From an uncultured Bacilli bacterium (GTDB taxonomy: Bacteria; Bacillota_I; Bacilli_A; RFN20; CAG-826): a stretch of 64,000 bases of DNA. Below are positions 58,120 to 59,941 of the stretch, piece by piece. Both the position numbers and the translations under genes were made by a program. Position 1 is the first letter of the stretch. The number at the start of each line of letters is the position of its first letter. The notes beneath the pieces are model-generated. The model searched no databases. It saw only the letters and a program-made list of their open reading frames with translations, and was not told where the DNA came from. The stretch lies in contig CAVRMZ010000001.1 in assembly GCA_963722445.1 (NCBI GenBank), positions 7,535 to 71,534 on the forward strand. The letters run 5' to 3'.

Positions 58120-58992
58120 TTAGAAAGCGGCGAGCGAAAGGTTGAGGTTGACGTTTCCGCCCTTGGCGGCATTATCTGCCGTGGAAAGAGTCCCCTCGAT
58201 CCAAGAAGAGACGATGACTTCGACGGTGGTATCACCAGCGATGGTGGCACCAGCGACGGTGGCAATCAATTGGCCGCTGACAGGTCCGTCAACGGCGGAA
58301 TTGACCTGATTGAAGGCGCCGGCGTGGAAGGTTCCTGTGGCCGGAGTCGCAAGCGTATAGCCATCGAAGTTATAAGCCTTGGTACCGGTGGCGGCAGTCG
58401 CAAGGTACTTATAACCGGCGGTAGAATCAGTCGTGTCATATTGCCAAGTGGTCATATTGGCCGGAGTCGTACCGGTGCTCCAAACGGCCACGCGAGTGGC
58501 CTTGGCGGCCGCAACGTCAGCGGTGGAAGAGGTCACGCCGGTAACGGCAGATCCGCTCTCGAGATAGACCGAGAACTGAGCAGTTCCAGAATTGATGAGG
58601 TTTAAGCCAAATTGGACGAAATAAGTTTTTCCAGAAACGTTGGCTATAGAGCTGATACTATTGGCGACGGTCGGCTGGGCGGTTCCATTGTCGGCTTTCC
58701 AAACCGGTTTGAAGAAGGTCTTGCCGTCTCCGGAAATATCGGTGACACCGGTGGTAGCGGCGATCGCGAGAGTGCTCGTGGGGGTAGCACTGGCACCAGT
58801 AATTCCGTTATTGGCTACATCGACATATTGAACTGAAAGATTACCATTATCGGAATAGACGTGGGCGCTCGTCAGACTGACGGTCGCCGTGCGGGTGGTG
58901 GTGAACCAGGCGAAGCCGGCGGTGGTGCCGGCGGCGGCGGTGACGCCGAGCAGCGAGGCTAAACCTAAGACTAACTTTGTTTTATTTTTCAT
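58120..58992 (-). CDS. secreted TasA/camelysin-like protein with SipW-type signal peptide, paralogue B
   Basis: 290 aa from ATG 58992 (RBS AAAGGA). N-terminus MKNKTKLVLGLASLLGVTAAAGTTAGFAWFTTTRTATV resembles the GT-x-A-x-F-(S/T) signal region of TasA/CalY. Thr/Ala/Gly-rich beta-type composition. C-terminal motif SSWIEGTLSTADNAAKGGNVNLNLSLAAF. Confidence 0.65.
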   Translation of the reverse strand: MKNKTKLVLGLASLLGVTAAAGTTAGFAWFTTTRTATVSLTSAHVYSDNGNLSVQYVDVANNGITGASATPTSTLAIAATTGVTDISGDGKTFFKPVWKADNGTAQPTVANSISSIANVSGKTYFVQFGLNLINSGTAQFSVYLESGSAVTGVTSSTADVAAAKATRVAVWSTGTTPANMTTWQYDTTDSTAGYKYLATAATGTKAYNFDGYTLATPATGTFHAGAFNQVNSAVDGPVSGQLIATVAGATIAGDTTVEVIVSSWIEGTLSTADNAAKGGNVNLNLSLAAF

Positions 58993-59020
58993 ATTTTTAT
59001 CCTTTTTTTCTTTTGAAAGA

Positions 59021-59941
59021 TCAATCATAAATAGCAGATAAATTCAAATTAAAACTAACGTTTCCGCCCTTGGCGGCATTGTTAGCCGTGGAAAGAGTTC
59101 CCTCAATCCAAGACGAGATGATGACTTCAGTGCTGCTATTAGCGGCAACGCTAGCGACTAATTGACCATACACAGCAGAACTTTGGAGATCAATGTGGGT
59201 GAAAGCGCCGGCGTGAAAGGTGGCTTTAGCAGGAGTAGACACAGTGCCTACTGCTCCATAAGCAGTGCCGCTGGCCGAAGAAATGTATTTGAAACCAGTG
59301 GTCATATCTTTAGGATCACTAGGATCAGCACTTGGGGTAACCGAATCCGTGCTGTCATACTGCCAAGTGGTCATATTGGCCGGAGTCGTACCGGTGCTCC
59401 AGATGGCGACGCGAGTGGCCTTGGCGGCCGCATCGTTTTTGGCTTGCTGAGCTTGTAGAGACGTATCAGAGCCTGCATTGACGTTAACGCCGACGACGGC
59501 AGAGCCTTCCTCAAGATAGACTTTAAAAGAAGTTTTGCCTGAATTGTAGAGCGCTACGCCGAACTGGACGTAATAGGTCTTGTCCGAAGCGTTGCTGATA
59601 GAACTGATTGAGGTCGCAGCGGTCGGCTGGGCGGTTCCATTGTCGGCTTTCCAAACCGGTTTGAAGAAGGTCTTGCCGTCTCCGGAGATGTCGGTGACGC
59701 CAGTGGTTGCGGCAATCGCAAGGGTGTTTGTCTTTGTCGCGTCATGAGTAATGCCGTTAGAATCAACAGCGGTATAGGCAATCGAGAGATCGCCAAAATC
59801 GCTGTAAACATTGGCGCTCGTCAAACTGACGGTGGCGGTGCGGGTGGTGGTGAACCAGGCGAAGCCGGCGGTGGTGCCGGCCGCGGCGGTGACGCCGAGC
59901 AGCGAGGCTAAACCTAAGACTAACTTTGTTTTATTTTTCAT
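59021..59941 (-). CDS. secreted TasA/camelysin-like protein with SipW-type signal peptide, paralogue A
   Basis: 306 aa. The first 43 residues are identical to paralogue B. Conserved and variable blocks alternate along the sequence. C-terminal motif SSWIEGTLSTANNAAKGGNVSFNLNLSAIYD. Confidence 0.65.
   Translation of the reverse strand: MKNKTKLVLGLASLLGVTAAAGTTAGFAWFTTTRTATVSLTSANVYSDFGDLSIAYTAVDSNGITHDATKTNTLAIAATTGVTDISGDGKTFFKPVWKADNGTAQPTAATSISSISNASDKTYYVQFGVALYNSGKTSFKVYLEEGSAVVGVNVNAGSDTSLQAQQAKNDAAAKATRVAIWSTGTTPANMTTWQYDSTDSVTPSADPSDPKDMTTGFKYISSASGTAYGAVGTVSTPAKATFHAGAFTHIDLQSSAVYGQLVASVAANSSTEVIISSWIEGTLSTANNAAKGGNVSFNLNLSAIYD

Follow-up and report, generated by a model that had tools for sequence, protein, structure and literature searches.

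The stretch of DNA considered here, referred to as the window, comprises 64,000 nucleotides (nt) from a metagenome-assembled genome (MAG) of an uncultured Bacilli bacterium (contig CAVRMZ010000001.1 of assembly GCA_963722445.1). Its minus strand carries two paralogous genes, A and B, which lie head to tail and whose DNA is a mosaic of near-identical and strongly diverged blocks. The identity of the shared blocks is due to recent, lineage-specific gene conversion between the two paralogues, and one further block of gene B points to an exchange with the orthologue of another species. The genes, their immediate surroundings and the tracts are as follows, with protein lengths in amino acids (aa).

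59021-59941, minus strand: gene A, the upstream paralogue, 306 aa
58993-59020, minus strand: spacer of 28 nt between A and B, with a sequence resembling a ribosome-binding site (AAAGGA)
58120-58992, minus strand: gene B, the downstream paralogue, 290 aa, starting MKNKTKL
58078-58099, minus strand: hairpin resembling an intrinsic terminator, followed by a T-run, directly 3' of gene B
59813-59941 in A and 58864-58992 in B, minus strand: tract 1, 125 of 129 nt identical, covering the signal peptide and the first ~15 mature residues
59620-59686 in A and 58668-58734 in B, minus strand: tract 2, 67 of 67 nt identical (SGDGKTFFKPVWKADNGTAQPT)
59353-59432 in A and 58434-58513 in B, minus strand: tract 3, 76 of 80 nt identical, including a 41-nt exact run
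59058-59128 in A and 58151-58221 in B, minus strand: tract 4, 64 of 71 nt identical, covering the region of the WIEGT motif
58485-58684, minus strand: inter-lineage tract in gene B, 99% identical to L1_B, the orthologue of B at positions 10001-10855 of the related contig L001

The start of gene B is placed at 58992, where its product, like all homologues in the family alignment, begins MKNKTKL; a 302-aa open reading frame from 59028 is a mechanical extension of the gene to an in-frame upstream ATG. No terminator was predicted in the 28-nt spacer, and A and B are thus probably co-transcribed. The hairpin at 58099-58078 is the sole terminator-like hairpin on the strand of the two genes. Upstream of gene A, the segment 59985-60083 is 93% identical to L001, against a median of 78%. 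It has no Rfam match and may represent the promoter or regulatory region of an A-B operon.

Evidence for gene conversion between A and B

Genes A and B are 74.6% identical at the DNA level over their aligned positions, and this identity is clustered in blocks. The exact runs that they share measure 59, 44, 67 and 41 nt, and the bounds of the tracts are those of the maximal-scoring segments of the alignment. A preliminary description of the pair, made from the letters alone, had reported genes 28 nt apart (spacer 59020-58993), a nearly identical beginning of about 130 nt (4 differences in 129 nt), an identical 67-nt block, which starts and ends one position later in A than had been given, and an identical 41-nt block (59361-59401 in A, 58442-58482 in B). 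The pairwise alignment bears all of this out, showing discrete identical tracts and not uniform divergence. Both insertions that had been described as peculiar to A are indeed present there, but the first (NVNAGSDTSLQAQQAKND) is not unique to it, as an allele in the related contig L023 has NVNAGSDPILQAQQAKND. Tract 4 is weaker or older than tracts 1-3. A repeat search returned the same A/B tracts as direct-repeat families and found no inverted repeats at the paralogues.

The main comparator was the syntenic relative L001 (JGI Ga0224525_1000054), in which this tandem pair is also present and is flanked left and right by the same genes. Its BLAST segments are ~79% identical to the window, and the global alignment gives 76%. 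The tandem pair also occurs in L024, where it is complete, and in L023, which holds one complete gene and the 5' part of the next. Synonymous divergence (dS) was estimated per segment according to Nei and Gojobori. Between A and B, it amounts to 0.12 in tract 1, 0.30 in tract 2 (0 in the 67-nt core), 0.17 in tract 3 and 0.47 in tract 4, and it is saturated between the tracts (1.57, 1.58 and 1.80). The corresponding values for tracts 1, 2 and 3 are 1.07, 0.58 and 1.77 in the paralogue pair of L001, 1.0, 1.0 and 1.8 in that of L024, and 1.14, 0.51 and 0.58 between B and its orthologue L1_B. Low divergence in the tracts of this pair alongside high divergence in other lineages implies recent conversion in the lineage of the window, not a constraint on the nucleotide sequence. 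Within tracts 1-3, A and B are 93-97% identical, compared with 76-83% for B and L1_B. Outside the tracts the relation is reversed, with 76-99% for B and L1_B and 59-61% for A and B.

A permutation test of the Sawyer type on 548 polymorphic sites in seven related genes found 38 consecutive concordant sites for A and B (global p=0.0008). The longest run without a synonymous difference, counted among codons with conserved amino acids, is 21 (p=0.011). Together with the collapse of dS in the tracts, the permutation result upholds the earlier suggestion of gene conversion between the paralogues. The assumption that this conversion is recurrent finds no support. In seven other tandem pairs of the family, the longest exact runs reach only 10-17 nt, and the L023 pair alone shows one of 46 nt; the tracts of A and B are recent and specific to their lineage. 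In tracts 2 and 3, both copies in the window are of the B type relative to the outgroups, with a dS of, for example, 0.5 between A and L1_B against at least 1.5 between A and L1_A, the A gene of L001. Gene B was therefore the donor and gene A the acceptor of these two tracts, and no direction is assigned to tract 1.

One of the blocks of gene B that appear variable has a different history, overlooked in the preliminary description. Within the inter-lineage tract, B and L1_B agree exactly over 110 nt (58520-58629) and over 48 nt (58631-58678), and nowhere else in the 14 kb of synteny between the window and L001 does an exact run exceed 44 nt. Its dS between B and L1_B is 0.056, and 83 consecutive polymorphic sites are concordant (global p<2e-4 by permutation). 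An identity of 99% in the tract, at a genome identity of only ~76-79%, points to homologous recombination between lineages, by which gene B and another species' orthologue recently exchanged ~160-200 nt. The product of L1_B was recovered unchanged from four different samples, in at least four assemblies.

Comparison with related metagenomes, which the preliminary description had proposed, revealed that recombinant alleles exist. L023_A, an allele of 319 aa from the subunit-gene region 266-1655 of L023, is of the A type in its N-terminal half and of the B type in its C-terminal half, and it carries the insertion NVNAGSD..LQAQQAKND, seen elsewhere only in gene A of the window. The insertion block of A and that of the L023 allele are 87-90% identical, with an exact run of 41 nt. 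In the permutation test, the mosaic signals of L023 are significant only pairwise. Both the copy number of the subunit gene and its cassette content vary between lineages. Three tandem copies are found in L010 (Ca. Enteromonas) at 9058-11231.

The protein family and its conserved gene cluster

Neither A nor B matches Pfam (to E<=1), NCBIfam, PADLOC or the sequences of the PDB. A word-indexed search retrieved 50 relatives, and an exhaustive profile search yielded 3013 representatives at E<=1e-3, 854 of them at E<=1e-10; among 98 family members, Pfam gave no meaningful hit. The N-terminus of both proteins is a classic signal peptide with a TasA-like FA/WFTT motif, the slash marking the putative cleavage point between A28 and W29. 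A28, W29 and F30 are invariant in the family, as are D84, S86, R177, W278, E280 and G281. The SipW-cognate signal peptide class TIGR04088 matches neither A nor B, and it matches 4 of the 98 members (best E 0.014).

An AlphaFold2 (AF2) model predicts a beta-rich fold with confidence (pLDDT 85, pTM 0.83); the segment that follows the signal peptide (29-45) is highly conserved but modelled with low pLDDT, which is the sole hint at a fibre assembled by donor-strand complementation. The products of A and B may polymerise into a fibre or matrix. The view that conversion keeps core strands identical while loops vary fits this model only in part. Of the two insertions of A, one sits in a loop/helix and the other in a loop modelled with low confidence, as that view would have it. 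The unconverted segment 109-170, by contrast, holds four predicted core strands, and its amino acids are conserved at saturated synonymous sites, with a ratio of nonsynonymous to synonymous divergence (dN/dS) of ~0.24. Nor is there a sign of diversifying selection, the variable segments having a dN/dS of ~0.2-0.3. Positive selection on the variable blocks was considered and finds no support in these values, which stand at saturated dS.

Facing the tandem genes is a divergent operon on the plus strand, and genes for cyclic di-GMP (c-di-GMP) turnover domains lie on the other side of gene B.

60284-60667, plus strand: conserved membrane protein of 127 aa, first gene of the divergent operon
60833-60913, plus strand: c-di-GMP-I riboswitch aptamer (RF01051) between the 127-aa and 305-aa genes, 60.1 bits
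61100-62017, plus strand: protein of 305 aa, a distant paralogue of A and B (hhalign E 2e-4 over 147 columns) with a C-terminal WLEGNDPDC
62107-63147, plus strand: protein of 346 aa with the signal motif IAWF ([FYI]AWF) and a C-terminal YIEGWDRDC
63158-64000, plus strand: McrB-like GTPase, of which the N-terminal 283 aa (transmembrane segment and coiled coil) precede the end of the window
57069-58025, plus strand: GGDEF diguanylate cyclase of 318 aa, convergent with gene B
53486-56986, plus strand: GGDEF-EAL protein of 1166 aa

This arrangement is conserved. A locus scan of a genome collection, with an alignment of 13 family sequences as the query, found ~25 distinct loci in Bacilli MAGs, and all ~20 that have enough flanking DNA show the same cluster. 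They come from Ca. Enteromonas, Ca. Alloenteromonas, Erysipelotrichaceae MAGs, UBA4951, and peat and other metagenomes. One to three tandem genes of the A family face an operon that encodes, in this order, the 127-aa membrane protein, the 305-aa protein, the 346-aa protein, the McrB-like GTPase, a DUF2357/McrC homologue and a putative signal peptidase of 311 aa; beyond the end of the window, the operon can be followed in L001 (982-8698). The 305-aa and 346-aa proteins are candidate minor subunits.

The GTPase is the best-conserved component, with 55-70% identity across loci and orders. It matches AAA_5, PDC-M26A (E 2.4e-38) and McrB chains of the PDB (E ~1e-5), and its N-terminus reads as a hydrophobic region followed by one with a heptad-like pattern. 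Its GTANNDDS aligns without gaps to GLMNTADRS of McrB; NNDD can be read as NxD plus D or as NxxD. The neighbouring 779-aa protein in L001 matches PF09823 (DUF2357) at E 2.2e-9, and such a gene adjoins that of the GTPase in ~18 loci. The 311-aa protein, a homologue of SipW/archaeal-type signal peptidases, is likewise kept in ~18 loci. It matches NF046067 (SipW, E 7.7e-12) and TIGR02228 (E 7.8e-11) and has the motifs TDSM, THRV and GDN.

These components recall the CoCoPALM systems, which Bell et al. (eLife 2024, PMC11090510) named while deferring their description. The traits given there are an McrB-like GTPase with an N-terminal transmembrane and coiled-coil (FtsB-like) region and a shortened NxD signature, an adjacent McrC homologue (DUF2357), an associated protein of the signal peptidase family, and presence in Bacillota (PMC11090510). 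The A/B locus shares the membrane-anchored, coiled-coil McrB-like GTPase, the adjacent McrC/DUF2357 protein, the signal peptidase family member and the host phylum; judged by its predicted proteins, it matches a CoCoPALM-type locus. PMC11090510 mentions neither the subunit family nor its tandem paralogues nor a riboswitch (the words "riboswitch" and "TasA" each occur 0 times). No follow-up description of CoCoPALM was found in the literature searched or in the texts of the eLife supplements.

The riboswitch is a full-length match to its model, the gathering score of RF01051 being 35, and it is found at the same position in seven of nine relatives tested, at 50-60 bits. Its presence explains why the intergenic stretch 60827-61026 is unusually well conserved (92-94% identical to L001). 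The GGDEF and GGDEF-EAL genes flanking the locus occupy syntenic positions in L001 and L024. Of the loci whose flanking DNA is long enough, about half have a GGDEF gene beside the subunit gene or genes. This proximity suggests that local c-di-GMP signalling may feed the riboswitch.

Two further observations concern more distant parts of the window. A serine recombinase (resolvase and HTH_7 domains) is encoded at 43721-44329 on the plus strand, too far from A and B to be implicated in their mosaic. At 46240-48614 on the same strand, a gene for a LuxE-like acyl-protein synthetase adjoins one for a LuxC-like acyl-CoA reductase (Pfam E 5e-43 and 1e-56). The MAG is that of a non-luminous member of the Bacilli, and the pair presumably forms a pathway for fatty aldehydes or fatty alcohols.

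Origin of the mosaic

We consider it likely that A and B go back to an ancient tandem duplication and encode the secreted major subunits of a cluster that a c-di-GMP riboswitch controls and that depends on a SipW-type signal peptidase, that they were recently patched by short-tract conversion, and that gene B additionally took part in an exchange between species. The duplication would be older than the split from at least two sister lineages that are ~79% identical. The two proteins would be co-transcribed major subunits that leave the cell by the Sec pathway; the SipW-type peptidase would cleave them between A28 and W29, and their extracellular assembly would take place at high c-di-GMP. In the lineage of the window, non-reciprocal short-patch conversion of the RecA type would have overwritten three to four patches of 70-130 nt, falling where enough identity persists for strand exchange. 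In a separate step, the ~160-200 nt of gene B would have been exchanged with the orthologue of the other species, leaving segments with different histories.

Several points weigh against this account. Tract 4 is weak, with 90% identity, and the saturation of dS outside the tracts means that the events can be dated only in relative terms. Genes A and B were each recovered in a single assembled contig. The presence of the peptidase and of the McrC homologue is deduced from syntenic relatives, since the window ends before their genes, and the scores of the peptidase against its hidden Markov models (HMMs) are below the curated cut-offs. The role of A and B as fibre subunits is putative, and their similarity to TasA is confined to the N-terminus. 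PF12389 (TasA/camelysin, Peptidase_M73) has no match in A or B, nor in sets of 41 and of 98 family members. An hhalign comparison of these 98 sequences with 30 TasA sequences covers only 52 N-terminal columns (E 0.0023, probability 12%). It is limited to columns 1-60, i.e. the signal peptide and the first strand, where TSTFA-WFTT stands opposite GGTWA-AFND, and against a single TasA sequence it is not significant. Foldseek searches of the PDB with two AF2 models were non-significant and became weaker with the better model. The first placed 7ueg_A on top (E 0.014) and gave E 0.046 for the TasA fibre 8aur_A, with TM values of at most 0.38; for the better model, 7ueg_A scored E 0.057 with TM values of 0.21-0.31. 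With no HMM match, a profile match to the signal region only and non-significant fold matches, A and B were not filed as members of the TasA family.

The same mosaic could have arisen in the reverse order, by a recent duplication or a full homogenisation of the pair followed by the import of divergent segments from foreign alleles, the identical blocks being what remains. The central block of B, 99% identical to another species' orthologue, speaks for such imports, as do the similarity of the insertion block of A to the L023 allele, with its 41-nt exact run, and the composition of L023_A, in which A-type, B-type and window-A-type segments are joined. However, outside the tracts B follows L1_B at about the genome-wide level (68-88% of nt), as vertical descent predicts, and the tandem pair with its A and B types is common to sister lineages. 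At least four separate imports into two genes would be needed, against three to four short conversions, and this order of events is improbable. An artefact of assembly or polishing, whether a metagenome contig joined from different sources or a homogenisation of the paralogues through mis-mapped reads, is very improbable. It would accord with the metagenomic nature of every sequence used and with the recovery of A and B from one contig each; the Logan assembly of the same data lacks both, exact look-up of one of the paralogues and of the GGDEF neighbour having returned no contigs and only the 127-aa neighbour one. Yet the independent Logan contig L031 (ERR12035932) is 100% identical to the window over 59913-62691 (2779 nt) and ends exactly 30 nt into the repeat, which begins at 59942, that is, at k-1 for k=31. 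A break at this point is expected if the reads hold the sequence in two contexts. The junction of tract 2 with the L1_B-like tract overlaps by ~11 nt, too short for a switch of the k-mer path at 79% identity, and both genes have intact frames and all family-invariant residues.

Programmed antigenic or phase variation, in which one copy archives the other as in the pilE/pilS system of Neisseria or the cassettes of mycoplasmas, is less probable still. Secreted or surface proteins encoded in tandem, short conversion tracts, indel-rich variable segments and recombinant alleles in related metagenomes would all suit it. Both copies are nevertheless complete, and each has a start codon and a sequence resembling a ribosome-binding site of its own, other lineages keep stable orthologous paralogues free of tracts, and the variable segments show the low dN/dS given above. 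Searches of the 64-kb window by tblastn and blastn found no further copies of A or B and no silent or truncated cassettes; programmed variation was rejected for want of such cassettes and of inverted repeats. It is scarcely credible that no recombination took place and that strong purifying selection on protein, RNA or DNA preserved the blocks. The tracts do coincide with the most conserved segments of the family (conservation 0.63, 0.43, 0.40 and 0.49, compared with 0.25-0.33 elsewhere). Against this, orthologues and other paralogue pairs have a dS of 1.0-1.14 in tract 1, where A and B have 0.12, so constraint on the amino acids alone cannot explain the identity, and no Rfam element lies inside either gene. 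For the preferred explanation, conversion between ancient paralogues, the location of the tracts in the most conserved segments means that a purely mechanical cause, the minimum identity required for strand exchange, suffices. Selection that keeps the interfaces of co-polymerising subunits compatible is possible.

Known systems and significance

The concerted evolution of tufA and tufB in enterobacteria is an established example of paralogues subject to short-tract gene conversion. As there, tracts of ~100 nt in A and B are near-identical including synonymous sites, and within them each paralogue resembles the other more than it does its own orthologue. The present case differs in that only conserved patches are homogenised, with the rest saturated, and in that one tract is shared across species. 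In Neisseria pilE/pilS, too, conversion reshuffles the gene for a surface-filament subunit and creates conserved and variable mini-cassettes. Here, however, the window has no silent cassettes, nothing points to a dedicated initiation element, A and B are both genes of the expressed type, and the events appear rare rather than programmed. The mosaic is well explained by known processes, namely ordinary gene conversion.

For the function of the cluster, the comparison system is the tapA-sipW-tasA locus of B. subtilis (PMC9245690, PMC9674648). Common to both are one or more secreted major subunits with a G-T-[FW]-A/[AW]-F signal region, a SipW-type peptidase in the locus, accessory proteins with the same signal motif and a link to biofilm-type regulation. 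In contrast to TasA, the products of A and B do not match PF12389, and past the N-terminus neither profile nor fold comparisons reach significance; their cluster adds the McrB-like GTPase, DUF2357/McrC, the 127-aa membrane protein and the c-di-GMP-I riboswitch. Two major-subunit paralogues, as in the A/B cluster, also occur in the sipW-tasA/calY locus of B. cereus. The subunits of archaeal bundling pili (AbpA, PDB 7UEG) and of Tat-fimbriae (TafA/TafE) resemble A and B as beta-rich secreted proteins, but all matches from the A/B family to them are below significance, including the weak TafA/TafE HMM matches of a few members. Given the signal peptide, the SipW-type peptidase and the c-di-GMP riboswitch, the comparison with pilins and adhesins made in the preliminary description is a reasonable one.

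A bolder proposal, offered tentatively and in our view rather unlikely, is that uncultured Mollicutes-related Bacilli build an extracellular fibre of a new class, with the A/B family as its polymerising subunit. The SipW-type peptidase, the membrane-anchored McrB-like GTPase and the McrC-derived partner would serve its export and assembly, the c-di-GMP riboswitch would act as an ON switch, and the subunits would diversify by cassette-like recombination between paralogues and across species. Were this true, machinery of a restriction enzyme would have been repurposed for the assembly of a pilus.

The mosaic of A and B is a textbook case of short-tract gene conversion combined with recombination between species, and it shows that the conserved segments of diverged paralogues stay competent for recombination. 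What the case adds is the cross-species tract and the placement of the two genes as probable subunits of a widespread, almost undescribed cluster that is linked to McrBC and controlled by a riboswitch; their family is large and covered by no curated library. The subunit family, its candidate minor-subunit paralogues, the SipW-type peptidase and the conserved riboswitch together provide a testable hypothesis for the function of an McrBC-derived system. The cluster is thus a candidate biofilm or adhesion apparatus in Bacilli lineages of the gut, the rumen and peat for which there is no cultured model.

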